Position numbers and translations under genes: made by a program
IMG/VR virus record: IMGVR_UViG_3300044620_001243
DNA length: 64,000 nucleotides
Strand: one strand, 5' to 3'
Source: a virus
The notes under the pieces: model-generated
The model's input: only the letters and a program-made list of their open reading frames with translations
Told to the model about the DNA's origin: nothing
The model's database searches: none
In this document: piece after piece, positions 3,968 through 63,320 of the stretch
How positions within the stretch are numbered: position 1 is the stretch's first letter
Layout: each line of letters begins with the position of its first letter

Positions 3968-4567
3968 ATGAACAACGAGATGAATAACAAAGGAGGAAAA
4001 ACAATTATTATTGATGATGCTAAAGCATTTTTCGAACATCTATCATTTTGGCATAACAAATCAGATGATGAGTGTATTGAATTAGCAACAAATGAATATG
4101 GTTTAGACGCCGAACAAGCATTGAGGAACATGTTCGAAAGAGATTTTGTTACTGGTATGAATAATAATTTAATTGAAGAACTTAAAAATTTAAGAGACAA
4201 TGAGGATGAAGAAAGATACAATCGGATTATTGATGATGCTTATAAGAATTTCAAGAATAATTTCCCGATGAAAAAATCTAACCCACCGAAAGACTATATT
4301 AATAGTAAAGGACAATTACTAACAAAAGAAGAATTCATCAACAAATGTAAAACCGATACAGAATTCTCCCAAAGGTGGGGATTGAAGATTGAACAACGAG
4401 AGTTGAGTTTGGAAGAAAGAGCAAAATGGTTACAAGATAATAAAGGATACGACTTATTGGTTGGTAATTTAGACCACGACCATATAAGAGAAGTTGTTGA
4501 AGAAGAAGCACCAACCAAACTAATCACAATAACATATAACGATAAAACAATAGAAAGCTATGAGTAA
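3968..4567 (+). CDS. hypothetical protein, paralog of 4865-5311 (shares a ThyA-insert-like segment)
   Basis: Start moved to ATG 3968 downstream of promoter 3909-3939; contains EEFINKCKTDTEFSQRWG..RELSLEER and C-terminal ITITYNDKTIESYE shared with 4865-5311. Confidence 0.6.
   Translation: MNNEMNNKGGKTIIIDDAKAFFEHLSFWHNKSDDECIELATNEYGLDAEQALRNMFERDFVTGMNNNLIEELKNLRDNEDEERYNRIIDDAYKNFKNNFPMKKSNPPKDYINSKGQLLTKEEFINKCKTDTEFSQRWGLKIEQRELSLEERAKWLQDNKGYDLLVGNLDHDHIREVVEEEAPTKLITITYNDKTIESYE
4544..4563 (+). repeat. gene-junction motif AAAACAATAGAAAGYTATGA, copy 1
   Basis: Contains the ATG of the downstream gene. Confidence 0.6.
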
Positions 4568-4868
4568 AGAAATTAGCCCTGTTATTATAGTAGCAGTAGA
4601 TTTAATGAAACGTGTTAATGAGGGTTTGGAAGTGGAATTCATAGGTGAAATGAAAAGAACAGAACCATCGGAATACTATCCAATTGGTCAGTTGGGGATT
4701 TCCACTAAAATGACCTTGTTAGGTCTTGAAGAAAATGTTTTTTTAGGAGCACAACAATGTGAAGACATGATAAACCCTCTCGGACATCTCTTAGCTGAGG
4801 ATTTAGTGATGACAGTTTTTAGAGACAAGCTAAAAGTATTATTTGAGCAGATAAGCCAAAATAATTGA
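4560..4868 (+). CDS. hypothetical protein
   Basis: 102 aa ORF, start embedded in the conserved junction motif. Confidence 0.5.
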   Translation: MSKEISPVIIVAVDLMKRVNEGLEVEFIGEMKRTEPSEYYPIGQLGISTKMTLLGLEENVFLGAQQCEDMINPLGHLLAEDLVMTVFRDKLKVLFEQISQNN

Positions 4869-5311
4869 AAATTATGAATAAAGAACAACAAGAATTATTG
4901 GATGATGTTTATGAGACATACACAAATTATCCATTAGCAACAATACAAGACCATCATACAAACATACTTTATCAAAATTTATACAAAGGTTGGTGTATTC
5001 TCATTGGTCTTTCTATCGTATCCCCGCACCCAACTAGACATCTAACAAAAGAAGAATTCATCAACAAATGTAAAACCGATACAGAATTCTCTGAAAGGTG
5101 GGGATTAAAAATTGAAGAACGAGAGTTGAGTTTGGAAGAGAGGAGTATTATAGCAAAATCAAACCACTATGAAGTATCTCAGAACATAAAGAGGTCTGTT
5201 CGTGTTGATGAAGACCGCACATTACATAAAAATTTGGATGAAATTAACATCCCAACAAAACTAATCACAATAACATACAACGATAAAACAATAGAAAGTT
5301 ATGAAAGTTAA
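4865..5311 (+). CDS. hypothetical protein, paralog of 3968-4567
   Basis: Shares about 100 nt (5042-5143) and the 3' end with 3968-4567. Confidence 0.6.
   Translation: MKIMNKEQQELLDDVYETYTNYPLATIQDHHTNILYQNLYKGWCILIGLSIVSPHPTRHLTKEEFINKCKTDTEFSERWGLKIEERELSLEERSIIAKSNHYEVSQNIKRSVRVDEDRTLHKNLDEINIPTKLITITYNDKTIESYES
5285..5304 (+). repeat. gene-junction motif, copy 2
   Basis: AAAACAATAGAAAGTTATGA. Confidence 0.6.
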
Positions 5312-5591
5312 AATTAATGAAAAATGGTTTGAGGGTAGATATGATGATGAAAGAAAATTTATTATACCTCTATCTGAAGAACAAGATGTGATTTTTTTTT
5401 ATAAATGGCAAAAAAAATGTAATCTTGGATTGAATGGACAAATACCTAAATCAGATTATGTGAAAGATGTTGAATATAAAAGAATTTGCGAGTCTGGTAT
5501 TTTAAATAATTGTTACCCAACACTAAACCTAAATGAAGATGCGGTATGGTTAAAATTTGATAGTTATAAAACAATAGAAAGTTATGAATAA
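5301..5591 (+). CDS. hypothetical protein
   Basis: 96 aa ORF ending ...KTIESYE in the junction motif. Confidence 0.5.
   Translation: MKVKINEKWFEGRYDDERKFIIPLSEEQDVIFFYKWQKKCNLGLNGQIPKSDYVKDVEYKRICESGILNNCYPTLNLNEDAVWLKFDSYKTIESYE
5568..5587 (+). repeat. gene-junction motif, copy 3
   Basis: AAAACAATAGAAAGTTATGA. Confidence 0.6.
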
Positions 5592-5862
5592 AGAAATCAA
5601 AAAAGGAAATCTGAATTACGACGGGTCAGGTAGAGCATACCCTGATAATCCACAAATAAAAGAAAATTGGGATTGTATTTGGGAAAATAATGGTAAACAT
5701 TATATGCTAGTTGGTAGTGATGAACACAAGAAGTGGGAAATTTACTTGGGTGAAATGATTAATGTTTGGATTGAACGTCGTGGGTATCTTGATTTTGATA
5801 CTGATGAACAGGAGATTATTGATTTTTACAATAAGACACAACAAAACAATAGAAAGTTATGA
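5584..5862 (+). CDS. hypothetical protein
   Basis: 92 aa ORF; reads the junction motif in a different frame. Confidence 0.5.
   Translation: MNKEIKKGNLNYDGSGRAYPDNPQIKENWDCIWENNGKHYMLVGSDEHKKWEIYLGEMINVWIERRGYLDFDTDEQEIIDFYNKTQQNNRKL
5843..5862 (+). repeat. gene-junction motif, copy 4 (read in a different frame by the upstream ORF)
   Basis: AAAACAATAGAAAGTTATGA. Confidence 0.6.
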
Positions 5863-6870: not shown

Positions 6871-8016
6871 ATGAACAATTTAGATAAAAAATACATAGCA
6901 CTCCTACAAGACATACTTGATAATGGAGTAGAAAAGAAAGACAGGACAGGTACGGGGACTCTATCAGTATTCGGTAGACAAATCCGTCATTCTATGAAAG
7001 ATGGTTTCCCACTATTAACTACAAAGAAGATGTATTTCAAAGGAATTGTAACTGAATTGTTATGGTTCTTGCGTGGCGACACAAACATCAAATTCCTTGT
7101 TGATAATGATTGTCATATTTGGGATGGGGACGCATACAAAAACTATACCAAAAAAATGACATACCACCCAGAAGAAAATTGGTTAGATGATGGAATAGGT
7201 GGGAAAACTTATCGTCAACTCACACAAGAAGAATTCATTAACAAAATCAAGACAGATGATGAGTTTGCTAAGAAGTGGGGGTCGCTCGGGCCCGTGTATG
7301 GTAAGCAATGGAGAAGTTGGAGTAAATTAGAACTTACTGAGGTTGGTAAAGAATTATCTGAAATTTGGGATGGTAGAACACATACTAAACTTGATTTTCC
7401 GATAGACCAAATCGCAAACCTAATCAACGACCTTAAAACAAACCCAGACTCAAGACGATTGATGGTTAGTGCTTGGAATGTTGGAGAATTAGACCAAATG
7501 GTTCTTCCTCCTTGTCACTACAGCTTTCAAGTTTATACAAGAGAGTTGAGTTTACTAGAAAGATATGAACTGATGAAAAAATTAGATAATTGGGTGTCGG
7601 TTCACTACAAAGAGCCTAAGACAATGGAGTATATGGATAAACATAATATCCCAACCAGAGCAATCTCATTAATGTATAACGCCAGAAGCCAGGACGTACC
7701 ATTAGGAACGCCCTTCAACATAGCCTCCTATGCACTACTCTTGGAAATAATTGCAAAGATGGTTAATATGGTTCCTGATGAATTGATTACTAATATGGGG
7801 GATTGTCATATCTACCTCAATCAAATTGAAGGTATTAAAGAACAATTGACAAGAGAACCTTACACACTGCCAAAATTATTGGGAAAGGATGAATATTATT
7901 ACTTAATGGATTTGGATATTCCTTTCTCTGAAAAAATTGATGCATTCAAACCCGATTTTTGGAAATTGGAAAACTACCAATCTCACCCAGCAATTAAATT
8001 ACCATTATCAAATTAA
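6871..8016 (+). CDS. thyA: thymidylate synthase (ThyA), long form with extra insertions
   Basis: DRTGTGT, GFPLLTTKK, LGPVYGKQWRSW, DSRRLMVSAWN, catalytic LPPCH, PFNIASYALL, GDCHIY; 381 aa versus about 264 aa for E. coli ThyA. Confidence 0.9.
   Translation: MNNLDKKYIALLQDILDNGVEKKDRTGTGTLSVFGRQIRHSMKDGFPLLTTKKMYFKGIVTELLWFLRGDTNIKFLVDNDCHIWDGDAYKNYTKKMTYHPEENWLDDGIGGKTYRQLTQEEFINKIKTDDEFAKKWGSLGPVYGKQWRSWSKLELTEVGKELSEIWDGRTHTKLDFPIDQIANLINDLKTNPDSRRLMVSAWNVGELDQMVLPPCHYSFQVYTRELSLLERYELMKKLDNWVSVHYKEPKTMEYMDKHNIPTRAISLMYNARSQDVPLGTPFNIASYALLLEIIAKMVNMVPDELITNMGDCHIYLNQIEGIKEQLTREPYTLPKLLGKDEYYYLMDLDIPFSEKIDAFKPDFWKLENYQSHPAIKLPLSN
7991..8016 (+). repeat. thyA 3'-end repeat, copy 1
   Basis: CAATTAAATTACCATTATCAAATTAA. 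Confidence 0.6.
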
Positions 8017-8526: not shown

Positions 8527-9099
8527 ATGAGTTTAACAAATTACGCAAAAAAAGAATTACAGACCGCCGGTTTCTTTGATGAAGATTCCGATTACGGGGG
8601 TTTAATTGGAGAGGCTGTAATGGAACTTATTGAAGTGTTCGATAAACAAGGACACTCGGGTATGTCTGCTCCTTATGTTGCTTCAATCTTTAACAAACTT
8701 GCCAACTTTGAACCTTTACTACCTATTACAGGTAAAGATGAAGAATGGGGAGATGTTAAGGATTTGGAAAGTGGAAAACCTTGGTATCAAAACAGGAGAT
8801 GTTCTGCTTTATTTAAAGATGGGAAGGATGGAAAACCCTACTTCATACACGCAATTATTAAAAGAGACCAAAATGGGAGTTGTTGGAGTGGAATGGCGTG
8901 GTTAAATGAAGAAGATTACAAATCAGGCGATAGAAGTAAAATGGTTGGAAAGAAGGGGTATGTTAAATCATTTCCTTTTGTTCCTAAAACATTTTACATT
9001 GATGTTAAGGATGTTGAGGTAGGAAAAGATGATTGGGAATCATTTGTTGTCGACCCATCACAATTGGAAGAGGTGTGGGAGTATTATGATAAGGATTAA
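8527..9099 (+). CDS. hypothetical protein
   Basis: 190 aa ORF; no motif recognised. Confidence 0.55.
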   Translation: MSLTNYAKKELQTAGFFDEDSDYGGLIGEAVMELIEVFDKQGHSGMSAPYVASIFNKLANFEPLLPITGKDEEWGDVKDLESGKPWYQNRRCSALFKDGKDGKPYFIHAIIKRDQNGSCWSGMAWLNEEDYKSGDRSKMVGKKGYVKSFPFVPKTFYIDVKDVEVGKDDWESFVVDPSQLEEVWEYYDKD

Positions 9100-13893: not shown

Positions 13894-15225
13894 ATGAAAA
13901 TGAACTTTTTCAACAGATTTCTAAGTTTTGTAAATAAAAAAAACCATAACAAAGAAAGGGCAAAAAAAATAGAAGAACTAAGTAAAAAAATTACATTACT
14001 TGAGCCCGTAGTTGCGGTGGTACCTGTCGTGGAAGAAACACCTGTTGTAGAAGAAATACCGGTAATTGAAGAAACACCTGTCGTGGAGGAACCCGTTGTA
14101 GAAGAGGTACCAGTAATTGAAGAGACACCTGTAGTTGAAGAAACACCTGTTGTAGAAGAACCTGTCGTGGAGGAAACACCTGTTGTAGAAGAAACACCTG
14201 TTGTAGAAGAGGTACCAGTAGTTGAAGAAGTACCTGTTGTAGAAGAGGTACCAGTAATTGAAGAAACACCTGTCGTGGAGGAACCTGTTGTAGAAGAGGT
14301 ACCGGTAATTGAAGAAACACCTGTTGTAGAAGAACCTGTCGTGGAGGAAACACCTGTTGTAGAAGAACCTGTCGTGGAGGAAACACCTGTTGTAGAAGAA
14401 ACACCTGTTGTAGAAGAGGTACCAGTAGTTGAAGAAGTACCTGTTGTAGAAGAGGTACCAGTAATTGAAGAAACACCTGTTGTAGAAGAACCTGTCGTGG
14501 AGGAAACACCTGTTGTAGAAGAACCTGTCGTGGAGGAAACACCTGTTGTAGAAGAAACACCTGTTGTAGAAGAGGTACCAGTAGTTGAAGAAGTACCTGT
14601 TGTAGAAGAGGTACCAGTAATTGAAGAGACACCTGTAGTTGAAGAAACACCTGTTGTAGAAGAACCTGTCGTGGAGGAAACACCTGTTGTAGAAGAAACA
14701 CCTGTTGTAGAAGAGGTACCAGTAGTTGAAGAAGTACCTGTTGTAGAAGAGGTACCAGTAATTGAAGAAACACCTGTCGTGGAGGAACCTGTTGTAGAAG
14801 AGGTACCGGTAATTGAAGAAACACCTGTTGTAGAAGAACCTGTCGTGGAGGAAACACCTGTTGTAGAAGAACCTGTCGTGGAGGAAACACCTGTTGTAGA
14901 AGAAACACCTGTTGTAGAAGAGGTACCAGTAGTTGAAGAAGTACCTGTTGTAGAAGAGGTACCAGTAATTGAAGAAACACCTGTTGTAGAAGAACCTGTC
15001 GTGGAGGAAACACCTGTTGTAGAAGAACCTGTCGTGGAGGAAACACCTGTTGTAGAAGAAACACCTGTTGTAGAAGAGGTACCAGTAGTTGAAGAAGTAC
15101 CTGTTGTAGAAGAGGTACCAGTAATTGAAGAGACACCTGTAGTTGAAGAAACACCTGTTGTAGAAGAACCTGTCGTGGAGGAAACACCTGTTGTAGAAGA
15201 ACCTGTGGTAGAGGAGACACCATAA
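13894..15225 (+). CDS. acidic PVVEE-repeat protein
   Basis: 443 aa; 35-aa basic N-terminus, then uninterrupted E(T/V)PV(V/I)EE and EPVVEE units to the stop codon. Confidence 0.6.
   Translation: MKMNFFNRFLSFVNKKNHNKERAKKIEELSKKITLLEPVVAVVPVVEETPVVEEIPVIEETPVVEEPVVEEVPVIEETPVVEETPVVEEPVVEETPVVEETPVVEEVPVVEEVPVVEEVPVIEETPVVEEPVVEEVPVIEETPVVEEPVVEETPVVEEPVVEETPVVEETPVVEEVPVVEEVPVVEEVPVIEETPVVEEPVVEETPVVEEPVVEETPVVEETPVVEEVPVVEEVPVVEEVPVIEETPVVEETPVVEEPVVEETPVVEETPVVEEVPVVEEVPVVEEVPVIEETPVVEEPVVEEVPVIEETPVVEEPVVEETPVVEEPVVEETPVVEETPVVEEVPVVEEVPVVEEVPVIEETPVVEEPVVEETPVVEEPVVEETPVVEETPVVEEVPVVEEVPVVEEVPVIEETPVVEETPVVEEPVVEETPVVEEPVVEETP
14040..15225 (+). repeat. 504-bp higher-order tandem repeat (about 2.3 copies) built from 15/18-nt PVVEE units
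   Basis: Landmark strings recur at +504 (14107/14611, 14247/14751, 14454/14958); the blocks compared by eye were identical. Confidence 0.8.
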
Positions 15226-15255
15226 AGATTTTTTTATTTTACAGTAAAAACTTTT

Positions 15256-44727: not shown

Positions 44728-44791
44728 CCGTATAGTTTTTGTTCTTTGACATCTTGGGAATTAAAAGTAAAAGTCGAGAGACTTAAAAATT

Positions 44792-44901
44792 AGTCAGGTG
44801 GCGGAATTGGTAGACGCAAGTGAGAATAGTAATTGCGCTGATGTAGCGGCAGATGCAGTAAGTTATTATTCATACAGGTTCGAGTCCTGTCCTGACTACC
44901 A
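44792..44901 (+). ncRNA. tRNA-Leu-like shell RNA 2
   Basis: Consensus ends (AGTCAGGTGGCGGAATTGGTAGACGC ... ACAGGTTCGAGTCCTGTCCTGACTACCA); 56-nt insert forms a rod GAATAGTAA/TTATTATTC + TTGC/GCAG + GCTG/CGGC; no 5-7-5 anticodon arm. Confidence 0.6.
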
Positions 44902-45008
44902 AAGAAACAAGTAAAACGCAAACGCACAGTCCCTTGATGCATCAGGTGAGGCGCACACTGTATACTGGATGACCTCTGTTTCTTTTTTAATCAGTCAGGT
45001 GGCGGAAT
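44871..45008 (+). repeat. 138-bp exact duplication, copy 1 (T arm + acceptor + spacer + next 5' half)
   Basis: Identical by eye to 45339-45476. Confidence 0.8.
44902..44992 (+). ncRNA. structured 91-nt spacer RNA candidate (copy 1 of 2)
   Basis: AAAGAAACA (from 44901, sharing the terminal A of the preceding CCA)/TGTTTCTTT 9-bp closing stem, internal ACAGT/ACTGT and GAGG/CCTC pairings, palindrome TGATGCATCA; identical copy at 45370-45460. Confidence 0.3.
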
Positions 45009-45101
45009 TGGATAGACGCATTGAGGAATCTAAACTTGGTAGCATTTGTTAGATTTAATAGTAATCCTCCTTCCTTACAGGTTCGACTCCTGTCCTGACT
45101 A
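44993..45101 (+). ncRNA. tRNA-Leu-like shell RNA 3
   Basis: Consensus ends; 57-nt insert with GAGGA/TCCTC and ATCTAA/TTAGAT stems. Confidence 0.6.
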
Positions 45102-45267
45102 CGACAGTTAGCAGATAATACTTGGTAGTTCTTGTAACGTCTGACTATGCGTGAGGTGGTTTTATAACTTTCCACCAGCTGGTCCAAAACTAAAAGTTAA
45201 TACAGGTTTAATAACGGGGTGAAGGAAAGTCTAACTAACAAGTACTTCACTACCTACTGTAAAAATT

Positions 45268-45369
45268 AGTCAGGTGACGAAATTGGTAGACGTGCCACGA
45301 ATAAAACTAAGTGGTGGAGAAACAGCTTTCAGGCACTCCATACAGGTTCGAGTCCTGTCCTGACTACCA
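45268..45369 (+). ncRNA. tRNA-Leu-like shell RNA 4
   Basis: Ends AGTCAGGTGACGAAATTGGTAGACGT ... CCTGACTACCA; 48-nt insert with CCAC/GTGG and GGAG/CTCC hairpins. Confidence 0.6.
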
Positions 45370-45476
45370 AAGAAACAAGTAAAACGCAAACGCACAGTCC
45401 CTTGATGCATCAGGTGAGGCGCACACTGTATACTGGATGACCTCTGTTTCTTTTTTAATCAGTCAGGTGGCGGAAT
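45339..45476 (+). repeat. 138-bp exact duplication, copy 2
   Basis: Identical by eye to 44871-45008; offset 468 bp. Confidence 0.8.
45370..45460 (+). ncRNA. structured 91-nt spacer RNA candidate (copy 2 of 2)
   Basis: Identical to 44902-44992. Confidence 0.3.
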
Positions 45477-45558
45477 GGTAGACGCACTGGACAGGCGATG
45501 CATTTAAAACAGAAATAAGCCCAGTCGGTACTTACAGGTTCGAATCCTGTCCTGACTA
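45461..45558 (+). ncRNA. tRNA-Leu-like shell RNA 5
   Basis: Consensus ends; 48-nt insert with ACTGG/CCAGT + GGC/GCC around a 22-nt loop. Confidence 0.6.
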
Positions 45559-45926
45559 CAAATCTTAGGAGTAATTAACCTAAGACTGAGAGGTTCGAAA
45601 CTCTCGATTGGCTATGGTGTAATGGGCACAGAGAAACGGAGTACGAAAGGGGTTACGGGAATTTTCCCGCAAACATCAGAAACGGGACTCAGGATTATGG
45701 TTCGAATCCATATTAGTCAACAAGCCGTCTTTTTTTCTTGTCCGCCGTGGACGTGGATTGTTGAGACGTAAAAGTAACAATCGATTGATTAGAGAACGGT
45801 AGGATACAGGTTCACTAGACGAAGGTAGAAGTTTTTTTTTGATAGATGGGTTTGAGTTCTTTATAACAACAAACCAACTATAATTCAGTAGGGACAAATG
45901 GGAGCGGCTTACTCCAGTCCCGAAAT

Positions 45927-46085
45927 AGTCAGGTGGCGGAATTGGTAGACGCTATGAAATCATGTTTTAAGATTGAACGGGTAGGCAGACGTAACATATA
46001 GGTAAAAGAGTGTTATCGCCGAATACACTTATAAGGGTCCTATGAAAAAACTTCAATCATACAGGTTCAAGTCCTGTCCTGACTA
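45927..46085 (+). ncRNA. tRNA-Leu-like shell RNA 6 (largest insert)
   Basis: Consensus ends (T loop TTCAAGT); 108-nt insert with GATTGAA/TTCAATC closing stem and nested helices. Confidence 0.55.
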
Positions 46086-46328
46086 CACGTTCCGAAACAG
46101 ACAACGGATAGTTCCACTATGAACGATGAGAAACAGGGTGATGTCCTGTATTAGTTATCGCCTCCCGAATGCGGTCGGGATAGGTTGACCACCTAAACAT
46201 CAGCAATGTGAACGGTCTATTTCTAACTCACCTACGTTTGTAAGACAACATAGAAGTGACGAGACGGGAAACTCGTCGTGAGGACATCCAAGACACCTGT
46301 AAGTTGGATAAATTAGGGTGTTATTTTT

Positions 46329-46451
46329 AGTCAGGTGTGGGTAAAAATGCGCTAACTGGAAACCCACTGAAAGCGAAAGCAAAGTCGAGGTCTAAATGCG
46401 CACTATGGCCGAGGTAATGGCGAGATACAGGTTCAAGTCCTGTCCTGACTA
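46329..46451 (+). ncRNA. tRNA-Leu-like shell RNA 7 (D arm replaced)
   Basis: AGTCAGG-TG, then GTGGGT/ACCCAC hairpin instead of the D arm, GC-GAAA-GC hairpin, consensus T arm and CCTGACT-A. Confidence 0.5.
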
Positions 46452-46596
46452 CAAAGACAATGGTTTTCCCCATTCAACGGATGTCGACAATCCAGAATGG
46501 AATCGGAATTCAGCACCCTCAGCCGAGGCGCCTCGTAAAACTACGATTAAGCTGTTAAGATTGGAGCGAGACGGGTACTCCATCATTGTCTTATTT

Positions 46597-46668
46597 GGTC
46601 GGTTCATCTAGAGGTTAGGATACAAGATTTTCATTCTTGTCACATGGGTTCGATTCCCATACCGACTA
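46597..46668 (+). tRNA. tRNA-Glu (UUC)
   Basis: GGTCGGT/ACCGACT acceptor, D arm ATCT-AGAGGTTA-GGAT, anticodon arm CAAGA-TTTTCAT-TCTTG, T arm ATGGG-TTCGATT-CCCAT, A73. Confidence 0.85.
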
Positions 46669-46843
46669 CCTTGGAGGTATAGGGGTAAACCCTTGAGGCG
46701 AAGTACAAGCCATAGTCACTGAACTTAAACTGACCTCCAACCAAATTAGAAGTGTCGCAATACGCGTTTCAATCTAATTGATAGACGTATCAATGAAGAT
46801 GTTCGAGGGTGAAAATCCCAAGCTTCTAATCCTCCATTCTTAG

Positions 46844-46938
46844 TGTTATGTGGTTAAAACACGTTAACTCTTACATCGCCTGATTAGCGCTAATCCGAAT
46901 GTAAGACGAGTAAGTTGGTTCGAATCCAACAGAATGGA
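46844..46938 (+). ncRNA. tRNA-like RNA of a second lineage with rod-like anticodon arm
   Basis: Acceptor CCATTCT/AGAATGG (7 bp), D arm GTGT-TATGTGGTTAAA-ACAC, T arm GTTGG-TTCGAAT-CCAAC, A73; 50-nt rod TTACAT/ATGTAA + palindrome GATTAGCGCTAATC. Confidence 0.55.
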
Positions 46939-47216
46939 CAATGAGTAAGAGATACTCAGAGTCTTTGGTCTAAGACTTAAACAATAGACTCGCAGAATGT
47001 CTACGGCGTGAGTGGGACATCATGGGAACAAAGAAGAGTCACACACCTTCTCCCAGTAGTGTTGACAGGTTTTTATGTGGTAAGACACTAATGAAAAAGA
47101 CTCGTTCTATGGGGTACTTATCTGGAGTATCAAACAAGTGTGAGTGATATGGTTCTCGAACAGACAGAGAAACCCGTTAAAATCTACCCGTCTGGAATCT
47201 CAGGATGGGGAAACAT

Positions 47217-47319
47217 AGTCAGGTGGCGGAGTGGGCTAACGCTAACTTGGAAGAGTCTGAGGAGTGGTAACCAAGTACCTATACTCTGATGACCGCAGGT
47301 TCGAATCCTGTCCTGACTA
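47217..47319 (+). ncRNA. tRNA-Leu-like shell RNA 8
   Basis: AGTCAGG-TG-GCGGAGTGGGCTAACGC ... GCAGG-TTCGAAT-CCTGT-CCTGACT-A; 52-nt insert with ACTTGG/CCAAGT stem; loop AGAGT complementary to downstream ACTCT. Confidence 0.6.
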
Positions 47320-47337
47320 CAAAAATAAATTAAAATT

Positions 47338-47598
47338 ATGTTTATAGAAAGATTTTTTAACCCCTATGTGTCATCTCACGAAAGGGTATTATATGAGAAT
47401 AAAGAAGCAATTGAACATTGTTTGAAATATCATACATGGATTAGACATTATTCATTTGAAGGTGATGAATATATCAAAAATGTTAATGGTAAATTAGTTT
47501 GGAATGATGGTAGTAAAGTTGATAAAAGAAAATTACCTAAAAAAGGAAAAGGATGGGGCAGATATTCAAGTGAACTTTATAATTTGTGTTCTTTTTAA
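47338..47598 (+). CDS. hypothetical protein (cassette between tRNA-like elements)
   Basis: 86 aa ORF starting 18 nt after element 47217-47319 and ending 7 nt before element 47606. Confidence 0.5.
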   Translation: MFIERFFNPYVSSHERVLYENKEAIEHCLKYHTWIRHYSFEGDEYIKNVNGKLVWNDGSKVDKRKLPKKGKGWGRYSSELYNLCSF

Positions 47599-47605
47599 AT
47601 TAAAT

Positions 47606-47751
47606 AGTCAGGTGGCGGAATTGGTTAGACGCTGTAAAAGTAAGATATGGGAATTGTGCACTCGGTAAACCTACGCACAAGGCTTAGATAGTTGTGCAAC
47701 AGCGGAAAGTCTTACAAAACTATCTTACAGGTTCGAATCCTGTCCTGACTG
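47606..47751 (+). ncRNA. tRNA-Leu-like shell RNA 9
   Basis: Consensus ends (G73); 94-nt insert with AAGATA/TATCTT and TTGTGC/GCACAA stems. Confidence 0.55.
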
Positions 47752-47764
47752 CAAAATTAAAGAT

Positions 47765-47908
47765 ATGTTTAGAACATTAAATTATATTTGGAAATTGTTT
47801 TGGAAAAGACCTAGTAGAAGAGTATTTTTTATATTTTTTAGAATGCTAAAAACGGAAATTAAGTGTTTAATGTTGACTGGATACTCAACAGATGAATTAC
47901 TAAATTAG
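47765..47908 (+). CDS. hypothetical small protein (cassette between tRNA-like elements)
   Basis: 47-codon ORF found by eye; its TAG stop overlaps the first 2 nt of element 47907. Confidence 0.3.
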   Translation: MFRTLNYIWKLFWKRPSRRVFFIFFRMLKTEIKCLMLTGYSTDELLN

Positions 47909-48033
47909 TCAGGTGGCGGAATTGGTAGACGCACGATTTATTGTTTAACGATGTGGCTCAATGTCCTAATGGATGAGAGAAAATAAACAGAGAAATATAC
48001 CACATACAGGTTCGAATCCTGTCCTGACTACCA
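47907..48033 (+). ncRNA. tRNA-Leu-like shell RNA 10
   Basis: Consensus ends with encoded CCA; 73-nt insert with crossing complementarities TTTATT/AATAAA and ATGTGG/CCACAT. Confidence 0.6.
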
Positions 48034-48085
48034 AGTTAACCCACTAAGACTAGAAACGGGTGACACCTCGGAAAGACGAGGACAT

Positions 48086-48170
48086 AGTCAGGTGGCGGAA
48101 TGGATAGACGCGGCCCTATCAGGGGTAGAGGCGAAAGAAACTCATACAGGTTCGAATCCTGTCCTGACTA
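48086..48170 (+). ncRNA. tRNA-Leu-like shell RNA 11 (tRNA-sized, non-canonical anticodon loop)
   Basis: 85 nt; best arm CCCTA-TCAGGGG-TAGAG has a C/A mismatch and C at position 33; looks like a damaged Leu(CAG) loop. Confidence 0.5.
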
Positions 48171-48278
48171 CACAGTGTTGGCTTCAAGGACCTATTAGGG
48201 AAGTACACTTAAATAAAACAAGAACGGGGAAAACACCGAATCTGCAGATAACGGCGAAGTACCAACGAAAGGTGAAAC

Positions 48279-53524: not shown

Positions 53525-54256
53525 ATGGATAAAGATAAATTAAAAAATATCATTACCAGAATTGGTCAAATAAATCCAAAATATGAATTGGAAAATATTC
53601 TGCCTCAATCGCCAAAATTAATTAAATTAATGCCTAAATTAATTCAACTCATGGGTGACCCATTAGAAGATGCTCAATTGGCTGCAGTTAAAAAAGATGG
53701 TTTAACAATCGAATATATCGTTAAAGGTGGAATCACCCCATCAGAAGATGTTCAATTGGCTGCAGTTAACGAAAATGGTTATGCAATCCAATATATCATT
53801 AATGGTGGAATCGTCCCATCAGAAGGTGTTCAATTGGCTGCAGTTAACAAAAAGGGTTATGCAATCTCAAATATCATTAAAGGTGGAATCGTCCCATCAG
53901 AAGATGTTCAATTGGCCGCAGTTAACGAAGAGGGTTATGCAATAGGATATATCATTGATGGTGGAATCGTCCCATCAGAAGGTGTTCAATTGGCCGCAGT
54001 TAATAATAATGGTTATGCAATCCAACATATCATTAATGGTGGAATCGTTCCATCAGAAGGTGTTCAATTGGCCGCAGTTAACAAAAAGGGTTTATCAATC
54101 GAATATATCATTGATGCCGGAATCATTCCATCAGAAGATGTTCAATTTGGAGCAGTTAATTATAATGGTTTATCAATCCAATATATCATTGATGCTGGAA
54201 TCACCCCATCAGAACGTGTAAAAGAACTTGCTCGTTCCAAGGGTGTTCAAATATAA
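53525..54256 (+). CDS. DUF4116-like repeat protein, paralog 1 of 3
   Basis: Seven roughly 30-aa repeats GGI.PSEDVQLAAVN.NGYAIQYII; shared N- and C-termini with the next two genes. Confidence 0.6.
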   Translation: MDKDKLKNIITRIGQINPKYELENILPQSPKLIKLMPKLIQLMGDPLEDAQLAAVKKDGLTIEYIVKGGITPSEDVQLAAVNENGYAIQYIINGGIVPSEGVQLAAVNKKGYAISNIIKGGIVPSEDVQLAAVNEEGYAIGYIIDGGIVPSEGVQLAAVNNNGYAIQHIINGGIVPSEGVQLAAVNKKGLSIEYIIDAGIIPSEDVQFGAVNYNGLSIQYIIDAGITPSERVKELARSKGVQI

Positions 54257-54261
54257 ATAAC

Positions 54262-54897
54262 ATGGATAAAGATAAATTAAAAAATATCATTACCAGAATT
54301 GGTCAAATAAATCCAAAATATGAATTGGAAAATATTCTGCCCCAATCACCAAAATTAATTCAATTCATGGATAATCCATCAGAAGATGTTCAATTGGCCG
54401 CAGTTAAAAAAGATGGTTTAACAATCTATTATATCATTGAAGCCGGAATCGTCCCATCTGAAGATGTTCAATTGGCTGCAGTTAATAATAATGGTTCATC
54501 AATCTATCAAATCATATATGATGCTGGAATCACCCCATCAGAAGATGTTCAATTGGTTGCAGTTAAAAAAGTGGGCGACTTAATCTATGATATCATTAAA
54601 GTCGGAATAACCCCATCAGAAGATGTTCAATTGGCTGCGGTTAATAATAATGGTTCATCAATAGGATATATCATTAACGGTGGAATCACCCCATCAGAAG
54701 ATGTTCAATTGGCCGCTGCTAATCAAAATGGTAGGGTAATCCAATATATCATTAAAGCTGGAATCACCCCATCAGAAGATGTTCAATTGGCCGCAGTTAA
54801 TAATAATGGTTATGCAATCCAACATATCATTAACGCCCGAATCACCCCATCAGAACGTGTAAAAGAACTTGCTCGTTCCAAGGGTGTTAATATATAA
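54262..54897 (+). CDS. DUF4116-like repeat protein, paralog 2 of 3
   Basis: Same architecture; N-terminus MDKDKLKNIITRIGQINPKYELENI identical. Confidence 0.6.
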   Translation: MDKDKLKNIITRIGQINPKYELENILPQSPKLIQFMDNPSEDVQLAAVKKDGLTIYYIIEAGIVPSEDVQLAAVNNNGSSIYQIIYDAGITPSEDVQLVAVKKVGDLIYDIIKVGITPSEDVQLAAVNNNGSSIGYIINGGITPSEDVQLAAANQNGRVIQYIIKAGITPSEDVQLAAVNNNGYAIQHIINARITPSERVKELARSKGVNI

Positions 54898-54902
54898 GTT
54901 AT

Positions 54903-55616
54903 ATGGATAAAGATAAATTAAAAAATATCATTACCAGAATTGGTCAAATAAATCCAAAATATGAATTGGAAAATATTGTGCAGCAAGCGCCACAATTAAT
55001 TCAATTCATGGATAATCCATCTGAAGAAATTCAATTGGCCGCGGTTGAAAAAGATGGTAAATATATAAAAAATATTATTGAAAGTGGAATCAAACCATCA
55101 GAAGATGTTCAATGGACAGCTGTTAATCAAGGTGGTCAGTCACTTTATTTTATCCTTGAAGCCGGAATCGTCCCATCTGAAGATGTTCAGTTGGCAGCGG
55201 TTAGAAGTAGAGGTTCGGCAATCCAATTTATCATTGAAGCTGGAATCATTCCATCAGAAGATGTTCAATGGTTTGCGGTTAACGAAAATGGTTATGTAAT
55301 CCAAGATATCATTGATGCCGGAATCACCCCATCAGAACGTGTTCAATTGGCCACAGTTAATTATAATGGTTTGTTAATCAAATATATCATTGATGTCGGA
55401 ATCACCCCATCAGAACGTGTTCAATTGGCTGCTGTTAATCAAAATGGTTTGTCAATCAAAGATATCATTGAAGCCGGAATCGTCCCATCTGAAGATGTTC
55501 AGTTGACTGCAGTTAGAAGTAGAGGTTCGGCAATCCAATTTATCATTTATAATGGTGGAATCAAACCATCAGAACGTGTAAAAGAACTTGCTCGTTCCAA
55601 GGGTATTAATATATAA
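54903..55616 (+). CDS. DUF4116-like repeat protein, paralog 3 of 3
   Basis: Same architecture; C-terminus PSERVKELARSKG.NI shared. Confidence 0.6.
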   Translation: MDKDKLKNIITRIGQINPKYELENIVQQAPQLIQFMDNPSEEIQLAAVEKDGKYIKNIIESGIKPSEDVQWTAVNQGGQSLYFILEAGIVPSEDVQLAAVRSRGSAIQFIIEAGIIPSEDVQWFAVNENGYVIQDIIDAGITPSERVQLATVNYNGLLIKYIIDVGITPSERVQLAAVNQNGLSIKDIIEAGIVPSEDVQLTAVRSRGSAIQFIIYNGGIKPSERVKELARSKGINI

Positions 55617-55621
55617 ATAAC

Positions 55622-60947: not shown

Positions 60948-60965
60948 TATTCCAAGAAATCTTTA

Positions 60966-60992
60966 CCCAGATTTGAATCCTATCTTGACAAC
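60966..60992 (+). other. decayed 3' half of a shell element
   Basis: CCAGATTTGAATCCTATCTTGACAAC versus consensus ACAGGTTCGAATCCTGTCCTGACTAC; followed by the shared cassette leader. Confidence 0.5.
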
Positions 60993-61015
60993 AAAAAAAA
61001 CAAAAAACAAAACAA

Positions 61016-61222
61016 ATGAAAAACAAAGTTTGGAACAAAACAGTTATTGCAACTGAAGAACAAAACGTAAGCATTTATCCGACAGATGAGTTTGATGGCA
61101 TTATAGTTGAAACAAAAGAGTTGGACGATAAAACATTAAATGGTAAGTTGTATCTTAACAAAGATGAAATGGAACTGTTGATTCAGAAAATGGTGGAAAT
61201 GATGAATTACGTAAAAAGTTAA
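61016..61222 (+). CDS. hypothetical protein (cassette after a decayed tRNA-like 3' half)
   Basis: 68 aa; leader AACAAAACAAATGAAA shared with other cassettes. Confidence 0.45.
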   Translation: MKNKVWNKTVIATEEQNVSIYPTDEFDGIIVETKELDDKTLNGKLYLNKDEMELLIQKMVEMMNYVKS

Positions 61223-61237
61223 TCGAATCCTGACTGC
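61223..61237 (+). other. truncated 3' half of a shell element
   Basis: TCGAATCCTGACTGC equals the consensus T-loop/acceptor with an internal 5-nt deletion; followed by the shared leader. Confidence 0.45.
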
Positions 61238-61264
61238 AAATCAAATCAACTAAAAACAAAACAA

Positions 61265-61405
61265 ATGAAAAATAAGTTAAAAACAATTTGGCATGATTTT
61301 TGGACTGACCCCCTATACTACATTGTAATTATGTCGTATATTGGTTTGCTTTTAATTATGTTAATAGTTAGTGTGGCTTGGTTTATCCAACCTTTAATAA
61401 AATAA
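61265..61405 (+). CDS. hypothetical small membrane protein (cassette)
   Basis: 46-codon ORF found by eye; same leader; stop 6 nt before the tRNA-Leu at 61412. Confidence 0.35.
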   Translation: MKNKLKTIWHDFWTDPLYYIVIMSYIGLLLIMLIVSVAWFIQPLIK

Positions 61406-61411
61406 CAAAAC

Positions 61412-61501
61412 AGTCAGGTGGTGGAATTGGTTAGACCGTCCCCTCCCTTAAGTGGAAGGGGGAGACCGAAAGGTATACAGGTTCGAATCCTGTCCTGACT
61501 A
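61412..61501 (+). tRNA. tRNA-Leu (UAA), type II; the most intact member of the AGTCAGG shell family
   Basis: Family acceptor and T arms; anticodon arm CCTCC-CTTAAGT-GGAAG (one C/A mismatch; U33, UAA, G37); variable arm ACC-GAAA-GGT. Confidence 0.5.
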
Positions 61502-61518
61502 CTAAAAATTAAAGAATT

Positions 61519-61680
61519 ATGAAAATAAAAGTACACTTATTAAGTCAATCTAAACCGATTGAATATGAGGATGTGAAAAACGCATACACAAAAAGCGGTT
61601 TGTATTGTGTCTATCTAAAAAACAATCAAGTACACAAATACCCTTTGTGTAATGTATTTAGAATTGAAGAAGATTATTAA
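61519..61680 (+). CDS. hypothetical small protein (cassette)
   Basis: 53-codon ORF found by eye between elements 61412-61501 and 61686-61768. Confidence 0.35.
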   Translation: MKIKVHLLSQSKPIEYEDVKNAYTKSGLYCVYLKNNQVHKYPLCNVFRIEEDY

Positions 61681-61685
61681 AACAT

Positions 61686-61768
61686 AGTCAGGTGGCGAAA
61701 TTGGATAGACGCTAGGGAAACCTTCCCGAGAATGAAAGTTCATATAGGTTCGAGTCCTGTCCTGACAA
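61686..61768 (+). ncRNA. tRNA-Leu-like shell RNA 13 (tRNA-sized)
   Basis: 83 nt; A1/A72 mismatch (CCTGACA); centre folds as GGGAA-ACC-TTCCC, not a 7-nt anticodon loop. Confidence 0.5.
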
Positions 61769-61784
61769 CTAAAAATTAAAGAAT

Positions 61785-61967
61785 ATGGAATGGGTTGAAA
61801 TTAAAAATGGAAAACCAAAAGATGGTAGTTGGGTACTAATTCAAAGTTCTTTGAAGAACGTACCGAAATATGAGGTTTGCTATTATGAAAATGATGAATG
61901 GTACATACCTTCGTATAATGATGTATGTGAAGAGAAACATATTATTAAATGGTCGTACATTGAATAA
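61785..61967 (+). CDS. hypothetical protein (cassette)
   Basis: 60 aa ORF between elements 61686 and 61974. Confidence 0.45.
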   Translation: MEWVEIKNGKPKDGSWVLIQSSLKNVPKYEVCYYENDEWYIPSYNDVCEEKHIIKWSYIE

Positions 61968-61973
61968 TCAAAC

Positions 61974-62096
61974 AGTCAGGTGGCGGAATTGGTAGACGTA
62001 TAGAGTAGGGAGTAGCACTCCATTTATGGTAAGGCAAGCAAATAAGACCTAACCCTCTAAGGTAGCACCATACAGGTTCGAATCCTGTCCTGACTA
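61974..62096 (+). ncRNA. tRNA-Leu-like shell RNA 14
   Basis: Consensus ends; 72-nt insert with TAGAG/CTCTA closing stem and GGAG-TAGCA-CTCC hairpin. Confidence 0.6.
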
Positions 62097-62115
62097 CAAA
62101 CAAACAAAAAAAAAT

Positions 62116-62322
62116 ATGAGTCAATTTATCAACACAAATCACGCAAACGAAGCGGCAAGAGAAGCCTTTCAGGGTTATAGGAAAGACACAGAAAGAATCA
62201 AACAAATCAGACAGATGTTACAGAATGGTGAATCTGTTAGCAATGAAGATATTCTTTGGTTGTGTCAAAGAGCTCAATCAGGCATACTACAAGAAGAATC
62301 AAGTTGGTATGACCACGGATAA
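62116..62322 (+). CDS. hypothetical protein (cassette)
   Basis: 68 aa ORF between elements 61974 and 62329. Confidence 0.45.
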   Translation: MSQFINTNHANEAAREAFQGYRKDTERIKQIRQMLQNGESVSNEDILWLCQRAQSGILQEESSWYDHG

Positions 62323-62328
62323 AAATAT

Positions 62329-62435
62329 AGTCAGGTGGCGGAATTGGTAGACGCAATAAGGCATGGAAACATGCGCATCATGACGGATTGGTGATATTAG
62401 CCAAAGTTATACAGGTTCGAATCCTGTCCTGACTA
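62329..62435 (+). ncRNA. tRNA-Leu-like shell RNA 15
   Basis: Consensus ends; 56-nt insert with ATAA/TTAT closing stem, GCATG-GAAA-CATGC (GNRA tetraloop) and TTGG/CCAA hairpins. Confidence 0.6.
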
Positions 62436-62454
62436 CAATAAAAAAACAAAACAA

Positions 62455-62943
62455 ATGAAACTAAATCAAAACTCACTCTCGGCAAAACTCTATCGTTGGT
62501 TCTATAAAACCGACACAATGCCAACCAACCTATGTCCTTACTTTTGGAAACTGGTCACTGCGGTGATTCTTTCACCTTTGCTTGCAATTCACACCCTACC
62601 CTATGAAATCATCAACTACAAACGTCAGCGTTGGGATACATACAGTGATATGCTCGGAATATCGCTTGTTTGTTGGTGCCTTATCGCTGTTGTTATTTGC
62701 ATGATTTCATCATTGGGTCTTTTCTTTTACATCCCTGATAAGGGTTCATCACTTTGGACAATGATGTCAATCGGTCTTATTTGTTGGGGTACCCTTATCC
62801 TAGTTGGCATTACTTGGGCTATTACTAAAACAGTAGTATACTTAAAATCAAAGAAGAGTGATAATGAAAAGACAGACAACATCATCGTTGAAATGGTGAA
62901 AGCAAAGTATCACAAATACTGCCCTAAAATTGATTGGAAGTAA
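62455..62943 (+). CDS. membrane protein (cassette)
   Basis: 162 aa with about 4 TM helices, between elements 62329 and 62951. Confidence 0.55.
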   Translation: MKLNQNSLSAKLYRWFYKTDTMPTNLCPYFWKLVTAVILSPLLAIHTLPYEIINYKRQRWDTYSDMLGISLVCWCLIAVVICMISSLGLFFYIPDKGSSLWTMMSIGLICWGTLILVGITWAITKTVVYLKSKKSDNEKTDNIIVEMVKAKYHKYCPKIDWK

Positions 62944-62950
62944 AACAAAT

Positions 62951-63028
62951 AGTCAGGTGGCGGAATGGTAACGCAGCTCGCGGTGTACACAAAGGGGTGA
63001 ATTGCAGGTTCGAATCCTGTCCTGACTA
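62951..63028 (+). ncRNA. tRNA-Leu-like shell RNA 16 (shortest)
   Basis: 78 nt; 29-nt centre tested at every register for a 5-7-5 arm, none found. Confidence 0.5.
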
Positions 63029-63047
63029 CAATAAAAAAACAAAACAA

Positions 63048-63320
63048 ATGAAAAGACTATTTTTATTTCTTCTCAGAAGATACAGCAACACTGAATCACA
63101 ACGAATGGAAATTTACCGTGAGTTGTGGGAAAAAACCAAAGAGGAATATTGGGCACAAACCGCATTTGGAAATGTCTACAATATGAATATTGAGGTTCTA
63201 ATGGCAAATCCATTTTTCGAAAGTAGAGTTAAGTTAGGAGAGGATGAACATTTAAGAATGTTAAAAGCTGGACTATCAGATTCATTTGACGATAGTGTTG
63301 AATATATCCTGAATGGTTGA
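63048..63320 (+). CDS. hypothetical protein (cassette)
   Basis: 90 aa from ATG 63048; the track ORF start at 62934 reads through the tRNA-like element and is rejected. Confidence 0.45.
   Translation: MKRLFLFLLRRYSNTESQRMEIYRELWEKTKEEYWAQTAFGNVYNMNIEVLMANPFFESRVKLGEDEHLRMLKAGLSDSFDDSVEYILNG

Follow-up and report, generated by a model that had tools for sequence, protein, structure and literature searches.

The thymidylate synthase gene (thyA) of the virus of IMG/VR record IMGVR_UViG_3300044620_001243, which we examined in a stretch of 64,000 nucleotides (nt) (hereafter, “the window”), probably carries exchangeable hypervariable cassettes on a conserved peripheral scaffold of the enzyme. Two upstream open reading frames (ORFs), designated ORF A and ORF B, are paralogs of this scaffold without the enzyme core (“mini-ThyA” proteins, or minis), and cassettes move between such genes and thyA. 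The scaffold comprises the helix DGDAYKNY, a first variable cassette (V1), and the helix pair LTQEEFINKIKTDDEFAKKWG, and then the strand FQVYT, the stem helix RELSLEER, a second variable cassette (V2), the sequence NIPT, and a return strand (Table 1). Comparisons with related genes showed that the cassettes belong to old and clearly separate types that reassort independently of the enzyme core, with purifying selection acting on each type. They also showed that cassettes pass between thyA and minis and from mini to mini by recombination ending in short framework or stem sequences (approximately 14–65 nt), and that tandem mini arrays expand, contract, and fuse via a repeated gene-junction motif.

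The thymidylate synthase of the window and its variable sites

The thyA ORF (positions 6871–8016) matched PF00303 in a family profile search (E = 2.3e−90; profile positions 1–264 of 266), and its product matched phrog_160 in PHROGs (E = 1.6e−104). An alignment of the window ThyA to its counterparts from E. coli and L. casei showed residues C215, R25, R195, R196, R272, S273, D275, N283, H313, and Y315 to be invariant. With the catalytic Cys in a PCH motif and the residues that bind deoxyuridine monophosphate (dUMP) both present, the product is, judged from its sequence, a member of the ThyA family. Its closest solved structures are the long-form enzymes 3UWL, 4DQ1, and 1LCA, and it possesses the small-domain insertion of the long form (approximately 50 residues; a ..D.FA.K(Y/W)G helix before LGPVYG), which, relative to E. 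coli ThyA, ends in LTQEEFINKIKTDDEFAKKWG. Residues 5–151 aligned continuously to 3UWL and 4DQ1, and also to L. casei ThyA. In the AlphaFold2 model of ThyA, the helix pair corresponds to predicted helices at residues 119–128 and 130–136 (predicted local distance difference test score, pLDDT, 86–95). Relative to both E. coli and L. casei ThyA, a further insert of 39–40 amino acids occupies the tip of the hairpin after the catalytic Cys, in the arrangement FQVYT-RELSLLERYELMKKLDNWVSVHYKEPKTMEYMDKHNIPT-RAISLMYNARS. The residues of this insert (228–267) were unaligned in every PDB hit, i.e., no solved thymidylate synthase covers it. The window thyA is a single uninterrupted ORF, with no endonuclease ORF or intron inside it.

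Far from being peculiar to the window phage, the hairpin insert is conserved in a large clade of phage ThyA proteins. The same insert was found in Flavobacterium phage immuto, the nearest isolated phage (54% identical in ThyA), and in two huge uncultured phages. The jumbo phages Joad, Goslar, Kwan, and Lak also have ThyAs with hairpin modules that share these stems, indicating that the module is old. We then considered the best 120 database matches to the window ThyA (338–513 amino acids) as its relatives. Across 118 ThyAs, the flanks of V2 (GFQVYT-RELSLEER and NIPTR-AISLMYN) were almost invariant, and the middle of V2, of 25–50 residues, fell into discrete types that could not be aligned with one another. 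V1, which lies between HIWDGDAYKNY and LTQEEFINKIKTDDEFAKKWG, was likewise hypervariable in the 120 relatives, as was the segment after QWR.W (hereafter, the post-QWR site).

The types at the two cassette sites are combined almost freely with each other, and independently of the core. Among 115 ThyAs, 66 V1 types and 50 V2 types occurred in 95 combinations; a set of 117 ThyAs likewise gave 66 V1 types. Pairs of ThyAs with the same V2 type had a core identity of 0.776, compared with 0.769 for pairs with different types, and ThyAs whose cores were 98–99% identical could differ in V1 or V2. These core-identity comparisons were used because a strict four-gamete test of V1 against V2 types, which found no complete quartet, involved too many types for the sample. 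Within cassette types, the ratio of nonsynonymous to synonymous substitution rates (dN/dS) was 0.10 for V2 and 0.21 for V1, at a dS of approximately 0.5; these values indicate that the types are old and constrained as peptides, and are not junk. Moreover, 6 of the 120 relatives, and immuto as well, had a full RELxLxER...NIPxR module at a third position, which follows EQIG, and the module types at this position were types seen at the hairpin site of other ThyAs.

Mini-ThyA proteins

ORF A and ORF B both carry EEFINKCKTDTEFS(Q/E)RWG-LKIE(Q/E)-RELSLEER, and the order of elements in a mini is helix, V1, helix pair, strand, RELSLEER, V2, NIPT, and strand. Both matched the profile of the mini family (hmmsearch; E = 3e−36 for ORF A and 2e−81 for ORF B), and both have the framework and lack the thymidylate synthase core, as a mini is defined here. 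Residues 89–138 of ORF A aligned with residues 86–137 of ThyA (DAYKNF.. versus DAYKNY..), and on the upstream side the DEAYENY of minis also corresponds to the DGDAYKNY of ThyA; on the downstream side, ..NIPTKLITITYN of both ORFs aligned with ..NIPTRAISLMYN of ThyA. The minis also hold counterparts of elements of the ThyA core, namely the helix before V1 and both strands of the hairpin. In a profile–profile comparison (hhalign), mini residues 52–139 matched ThyA residues 112–137 plus 220–273, across an 82-residue gap, with a probability of 99% (E = 6e−18). What ORF A and ORF B lack, in comparison with ThyA, is the catalytic stretch of approximately 80 residues from the helix pair to the hairpin strand, together with everything outside the scaffold. 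When the profile of the small-ORF family was searched against the six-frame translation of the window, ThyA was matched at E = 1.2e−17, and a profile search found only three copies of the scaffold (ORF A, ORF B, and thyA) within the 64-kb window. AlphaFold2 predicted a compact fold for ORF B (pLDDT, 74.7; predicted template modeling score, pTM, 0.62), and the models of ORF B and ThyA had the same order of secondary structures over the shared parts.

The relationship is also visible in the DNA. In repeat family D13, positions 4316–4380 and 5039–5103 were 92% identical, and the thyA copy (7216–7280) was 72% identical to the reference copy; in repeat family D14, positions 4319–4419 and 5042–5142 were 94% identical. 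The 13-mer GAGAGTTGAGTTT occurred in exactly three copies (at 4398, 5121, and 7541), against none expected from 100 shuffles. Comparison with L011 (positions 430–675 and 1985–2332), a related phage contig that is 98.5% identical upstream, showed that ORF A is a fusion of an 81-amino-acid gene with a mini lacking its first codons, joined at an ATGAA(TAAA)GAAAG junction, where the repeated gene-junction motif lies.

A first-pass annotation of the window had described a ThyA of 381 amino acids with a long-form segment and an insert between FQVYT and RAISLMYNARS, as alignment to ThyA from E. coli and from L. casei confirmed. It had also stated that both insert pieces lie adjacent to each other in the ORFs at 3968–4567 and 4865–5311, which the translations bear out, and that these ORFs resemble thyA at the DNA level, which D13 and the 13-mer corroborate; the resemblance also reaches beyond the two pieces on both sides. 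A chance match, or the short low-complexity match with which that annotation would fail, is ruled out by the hhalign and six-frame profile E-values given above. Alignment with long-form ThyAs of Firmicutes and with those of phages upheld the long-form assignment and extended the hairpin insert to the whole phage clade.

The minis form a large family. A search with ORF B retrieved 6475 proteins (threshold, E ≤ 0.01); its top 120 matches were full-length proteins of approximately 104–192 amino acids without any Pfam domain. Clustered at 50% identity, the matches of an exhaustive profile search formed 606 groups, of which 397 reached E ≤ 1e−10; nearly all were 88–221 amino acids long. The consensus of 150 cluster representatives was MNKE...IIDEAY.NY-(V1)-KEEFINKCKTD.EFSEKWG-LKIEE-RELSLEER-(V2)-D..NIPTKLITITYN..TIESYE, with a near-invariant framework and hypervariable V1 and V2. 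Pfam detected a thymidylate synthase domain in 4 of the best 150 representatives and other domains in none. The dN/dS of the mini framework and V1 was 0.19–0.26, and minis retain a start codon and an uninterrupted frame, with N- and C-termini of their own kind. Neither Pfam nor PHROGs gave a match for ORF A, ORF B, or five neighboring small ORFs, and PHROGs has no family for the minis. Among isolated phages, tblastn found no significant match to minis (E ≤ 1e−3) apart from one weak N-terminal match, and 185,579 species-representative bacterial and archaeal genomes gave no significant match, only a 20-residue one.

In one mini, P0247 (161 amino acids), the V2 module occurs twice in succession (RELSLEER..NVPTKLITVT-RELSLEER..APTKLITITYN). 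Its second copy is of the V2 type of ORF A, and the arrangement indicates a duplication at the level of the module. The possibility that the module is a general in-frame mobile element was rejected: a regular-expression scan of the window and eight loci (L001–L008) gave hits only in ThyA and minis.

Exchange of cassettes between thyA and minis

Cassette types are shared between ThyAs and minis at both sites. Eleven V2 types were common to the two kinds of protein in a first sample, and seven V1 types in a sample of 61 distinct loci (57 from IMG/VR). The V2 type of the window thyA was found in 27 ThyAs and 6 minis, and its V1 type also in a mini of L012. The V1 type of ORF A is that of the ThyA P0203 and of mini 3 of L011, the V1 type of ORF B also lies inside the ThyA P0331, and the V1 of several ThyAs recurs in minis of L011 and L012. 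One mini of L011 shares its V1 type with P0123.

The borders of the shared stretches are sharp. Mini P0086 of L009 and the window thyA shared approximately 93% DNA identity from AGAGAGTTGAG to ATCCCAACCA; outside the module the two were immediately unrelated, and their helix pairs were 68% identical. Across 11 independent pairs of a thyA and a mini with the same V2 type, module identity was 91%, against 30% and 48% over the flanking 45 nt. The upstream mini of L036 matches the module of the thyA on its own contig at 116 of 117 nt, between unrelated flanks, and the same was seen in L037, from another sample; the sharing in L036 is a recent intragenomic conversion. An apparent same-genome shared cassette in L011 was discarded as an artifact of single-linkage clustering.

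Organization of the locus and comparison with a near-identical phage

The 61 loci contained 1–8 minis each. Of the mini–thyA pairs, 65 had the mini upstream on the same strand and 5 downstream, and none had it on the opposite strand. Minis within one array nearly always differed from one another in V1 and V2. L011, a 33-kb contig whose flanks are 98.5–99.9% identical to the window, has four minis, compared with two in the window. Its thyA is a patchwork of segments 28–100% identical to the window gene, in which V1 and the post-QWR site differ and V2 is 100% identical. Because this mosaic lies amid near-identical flanks, the locus is a recombination hot spot on a near-clonal background.

The junction motif, AACAATAGAAAGYTATGA, was present in four exact copies and one variant with three mismatches (five matches, against 0.44 expected). 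It can be written AAAACAATAGAAAGYTATGA(ATAAAGAA), with variants at 4860 and 6413. Unrelated small genes end in ..TIESYE before the stop codon, with the next gene opening MNKE, and the motif is kept at 5845 whatever the reading frame. Minis of L011, L012, and L067 are linked to one another head to tail through it. The motif looks like a boundary sequence for the shuffling of whole genes.

Two observations concern the thymidylate synthase genes at these loci. The core segment immediately after V2 (window positions 7657–7760) occurs in three discrete allelic classes among the ThyA relatives (SLMYNARSQDVPLGTPFNIASY, SLMWNQRSVDTFLGLPFNIASY, and SLMFNMRSTDVPLGLPFNLASY), and it is only 64–71% identical between the window and L011, although L011 is approximately 99% identical elsewhere. 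This segment is the classical intron and endonuclease site of td/thyA, as used in phage Joad. In addition, a short, divergent gene of the thymidylate synthase family replaces the long thyA 3′ of mini arrays in many contigs, among them L047 (7884–8738), L090 (11047–11889), and L084 (13285–14115). Its product matches PF00303 at approximately 1e−60, contains FPCAYE..RSNDYLVAGYINK, and may have a different substrate or product.

Homing endonucleases in related thyA genes

In related contigs, thyA was split at V1 by a DUF7487-type ORF (L018:10996–12006) and by a NUMOD1 ORF with GIY-YIG-like motifs recognized by eye (L087:11724–12491), and at the post-QWR site by an ORF with HNH, NUMOD3, and I-TevI DNA-binding domains (L082:11945–12679). 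An in-frame insert of approximately 270 amino acids was also found at the post-QWR site (L070:12162–14048). In L066 (2718–3632; GIY-YIG plus NUMOD3), the split falls before PPCH, which is not a cassette position, and in phage Joad a GIY-YIG gene follows the V2 module at a distance of 12 codons. Where thyA is split, its C-terminal fragment opens with a mini-like helix-pair leader (..KEEF(I/L).K(I/L)KTD.EF..), even when the split lies elsewhere. Because this leader resembles the minis, it suggests that the minis may descend from C-terminal fragments of split thyA genes, with endonuclease breaks perhaps driving the exchange. The idea that V1 arose from the fused tails of endonuclease-split fragments was rejected, as no ThyA or mini carries LKECE.. 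or ..GRPFT tails.

Interpretation of the variable cassettes

Under the interpretation that we favor, in which cassettes are exchanged between thyA and its core-less paralogs, double-strand breaks made by homing endonucleases invading thyA at V1 and the post-QWR site would fuel the exchange. The minis would be translated, functional proteins and not silent donors, as their reading frames suggest. Diversifying or balancing selection may act on V1 and V2 as a recognition surface, which could serve, for instance, as a target, decoy, or inhibitor in phage–host or phage–phage conflict, and the minis would then widen the specificity repertoire of each genome. The assignment of V1 and V2 to a recognition surface is the weakest step of this interpretation.

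Several observations weigh against it. A structural or functional match for the mini was searched for and none was found, and every mini-bearing relative is a metagenomic contig. No homing endonuclease or recombinase is among the Pfam families listed (25 of 41) for the larger ORFs of the window. The window has no endonuclease in or near thyA, and it is related contigs that connect the exchange to endonuclease breaks. Sharing of cassettes between thyA and minis of the same genome is rare (2 of 69 V2 pairs and 0 of 56 V1 pairs), so frequent programmed conversion from donors to thyA is unsupported. Finally, many further loci have minis before the short thymidylate synthase family gene (277–285 amino acids), which has no V modules; being found upstream of such a gene, minis are independent of a cassette-bearing thyA.

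It is possible, though doubtful, that the ThyA-derived scaffold constitutes a hypervariable-binding-protein system of phages, in which two cassettes on a frame are combinatorially diversified through exchange among thyA and the tandem scaffold-only genes, giving every genome a set of specificities for counter-defense or inter-phage conflict. Such a system would be a recombination-based analogue of the targets of diversity-generating retroelements. A diversity-generating retroelement itself was rejected, since the cassette types differ in length, cannot be aligned, and do not show the pattern of template and variable repeats differing only at adenines. The window contains no template-like repeat beyond the three framework copies, and no reverse transcriptase is among the same 25 of 41 Pfam families.

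We regard as unlikely the explanation that the minis are a silent archive from which frequent, unidirectional gene conversion switches the surface of ThyA, as with tprK (Treponema), vlsE (Borrelia), and pilE/pilS (Neisseria). The layout of the locus is that of these systems: a full-length expression-site gene with variable regions, conserved sequence flanking those regions, an array of partial copies directly upstream in the same orientation, and transfer limited to cassettes, with one clear intragenomic conversion in L036. However, that conversion is the single verified event, and in-genome sharing between thyA and minis is rare. The minis appear to be translated and selected, given their intact ORFs with conserved starts and ends and their own termini, at a dN/dS of approximately 0.2, and they persist 5′ of thymidylate synthase genes without V modules. 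In the window, moreover, the framework flanks of the minis and thyA are only approximately 72% identical, with exact matches of 10–14 nt. The carrier here is a metabolic enzyme of a phage, not a cell-surface antigen.

It seems quite improbable that the minis are merely decaying thyA fragments left by endonuclease insertions, with the variable segments as neutral scars and no function. Decay would account for how often endonuclease genes interrupt thyA at V1 and the post-QWR site, for the resemblance of the helix-pair leader of C-terminal fragments to minis, for the existence of chimeric fragments (P0246), and for ORF A itself being a fusion, but it is difficult to reconcile with the strong purifying selection within cassette types (0.10 and 0.21) and on the mini framework. 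Nor does it explain why at least 397 clusters at 50% identity keep a near-invariant framework, why arrays of up to eight copies nearly all differ in V1 and V2, or why a V1 built from fused fragment tails was not found.

The first-pass annotation had offered two accounts of the inserts: a single small domain that also exists free-standing, or segments shuffled by recombination between thyA and the upstream paralogs. In its fuller form, the first account holds that V1, the helix pair, and V2 pack as one autonomous domain of ThyA that docks partners, e.g., a nucleotide-synthesis complex, and that the minis are free copies of this domain. Free-standing homologues are indeed numerous, the AlphaFold2 models of ThyA and the mini have the same order of secondary structures, and the mini is compact (pTM, 0.62). 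Surface insertions of the T4 thymidylate synthase have also reportedly been proposed as contact sites in the complex that synthesizes deoxynucleoside triphosphates. On the other hand, the minis include elements of the core, and the nearly free assortment of V1 with V2 types speaks against their being tightly co-adapted. A fixed partner is also difficult to square with the differences in V1 and the post-QWR site between phages whose remaining sequence is 99% identical. We consider the docking form of the domain account very improbable. The second account, recombination between thyA and the paralogs, is strongly supported by the shared types, the sharp borders, and the module match of 116/117 nt in L036.

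Relation to known systems and significance

The long-form ThyAs of Firmicutes (1LCA of L. casei, 3UWL of E. faecalis, and 4DQ1 of S. aureus) have the same layout of helix, loop, and helix pair as the window enzyme (AFE.Y.K ... DD.FA.KYG) and the same conserved catalytic residues, but they have no hairpin insert after the catalytic Cys, no hypervariable cassettes, and no core-less paralogs. HsdS of Type I restriction systems, like the scaffold here, has conserved helices between its two variable specificity domains, and truncated neighboring paralogs swap these domains through recombination in the conserved parts. HsdS shuffling, however, uses inverted repeats and a dedicated site-specific recombinase, whereas the copies described here are all direct, and no recombinase is among the listed Pfam families (25 of 41). 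The td/thyA genes invaded by endonucleases or introns (I-TevI in T4, I-BmoI in Bacillus, and the GIY-YIG gene in Erwinia phage Joad) resemble the present case in that the thyA of related contigs, like that of Joad, is a frequent target of GIY-YIG and HNH endonuclease genes, and in the patchy, co-conversion-like mosaicism between the window and L011. They differ from the window, where thyA has no endonuclease or intron and the cassettes are read in frame and conserved as peptides. Lambdoid linkers and the promoter–stem-loop cassettes of T4-type phages likewise combine a repeated junction motif with changes in gene copy number and fusions; here, in contrast, exchange also takes place inside a gene, in peptide cassettes of 25–45 codons.

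Cassette exchange among paralogs is thus already known as a process; we rate the carrier enzyme as unexpected and the protein family as new. A full-text literature search turned up neither hypervariable thymidylate synthases nor a mini-ThyA family, and movement of cassettes of this kind is not known to have been reported for an enzyme of nucleotide metabolism. Few enzymes are as conserved or as well studied as thymidylate synthase, and swapped hypervariable surface cassettes were not expected on it. Because selection keeps old, discrete types, the surface of a phage enzyme of nucleotide metabolism seems to be seen by something, such as a host defense, a competitor, or a variable partner. The analysis also defines a large unannotated phage family on the ThyA scaffold, comprising 397 or more clusters at 50% identity. 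Should the variable surface act as a recognition module, the family would provide a natural, compact, two-loop display scaffold and an entry to the biology of phage–host conflict; if the pattern stems from endonuclease conflict, it would provide an unusually clear record of homing endonucleases remodeling their target gene.

Table 1. Positions of thyA, the two mini-ThyA ORFs, and their elements in the window
Feature	Position	Strand	Description and basis
ORF A	3968..4567	+	199 amino acids; in-frame fusion in which the N-terminal 81 amino acids come from an unrelated gene and the remainder is a mini-ThyA scaffold (4211–4564)
Scaffold elements of ORF A	4253–4318, V1; 4319–4381, helix pair; 4382–4396, strand; 4397–4420, stem; 4421–4507, V2; 4508–4564, stem and C-terminal strands
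Gene-junction motif	4546..4563; copies 5287–5304, 5570–5587, 5845–5862	+	Mini end ..TIESYE and stop codon overlap the next start
ORF B	4874..5311	+	145 amino acids; full-length mini-ThyA; start at 4874 better than 4865 by homology
Scaffold elements of ORF B	4922–5041, V1; 5042–5104, helix pair; 5105–5119, strand; 5120–5143, stem; 5144–5245, V2; 5246–5257, NIPT; 5258–5308, C-terminal strands
thyA	6871..8016	+	Long-form thymidylate synthase, intact, 381 amino acids; carries the variable scaffold; PF00303, residue alignment
Framework helix DGDAYKNY	7123..7146	+	Precedes V1; HIWDGDAYKNY near-invariant in 120 relatives; aligns with DEAYENY / DDAYKNF of minis
V1 cassette of thyA	7147..7218	+	TKKMTYHPEENWLDDGIGGKTYRQ; 28–42% identity to L011
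Conserved helix pair	7219..7281	+	LTQEEFINKIKTDDEFAKKWG; long-form small-domain element; framework and recombination flank; member of D13, 72% to 5039–5103
VRb	7321..7401	+	Third hypervariable segment, after QWRSW, not in minis; sequence and length vary in all relatives; pLDDT 39–56
Catalytic PPCH motif and strand FQVYT into the hairpin	7507..7539	+	Alignments
V2 module	7540..7656	+	5′ stem RELSLLER (7540–7563); variable part YELMKKLDNWVSVHYKEPKTMEYMDKH (7564–7644); 3′ stem NIPT (7645–7656)
Return strand RAISLMYNARS	7657..7689	+	Equivalent to E. coli KLSCQLYQRS; dUMP-binding Arg and Ser; aligns with KLITITYNDKT of minis

Neighboring genes and other features of the window

A homologue of Tad3, an inhibitor of Type I Thoeris (PF25185; E = 6e−38), lies 0.5 kb 3′ of thyA at window positions 8527–9099. 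These coordinates were deduced: the scan of the window gave a family count, and a 190-amino-acid gene with the Tad3 match occupies the syntenic position in L011. In L012, the Tad3 match is in a gene of 193 amino acids approximately 7 kb upstream of thyA. A counter-defense neighbor is compatible with a conflict role without proving one.

Approximately 15 copies of a transfer RNA (tRNA)-like pair of ends (TAGTCAGGTGGCGGAATTGGTAGACGC ... CAGGTTCGAATCCTGTCCTGACTAC), with one common acceptor stem, were found at 44785–48186 and 60965–63053. Because ARAGORN called only six tRNA genes in the window, many of these copies appear to be unusual or degenerate elements. Long in-frame tandem repeats with periods of 15–18 nt and 78 nt occur in ORFs at 13999–15200 and 53572–55618, and the Pfam scan of the window ORFs included the MORN_2 and LED repeat families. 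Approximately 10 copies of an intergenic motif ending ..TTTG..N..TAtATTTG/A (repeat families D9 and D12) are distributed over positions 15255–63963; the motif resembles the promoter consensus of Bacteroidota and is consistent with a host from that group.

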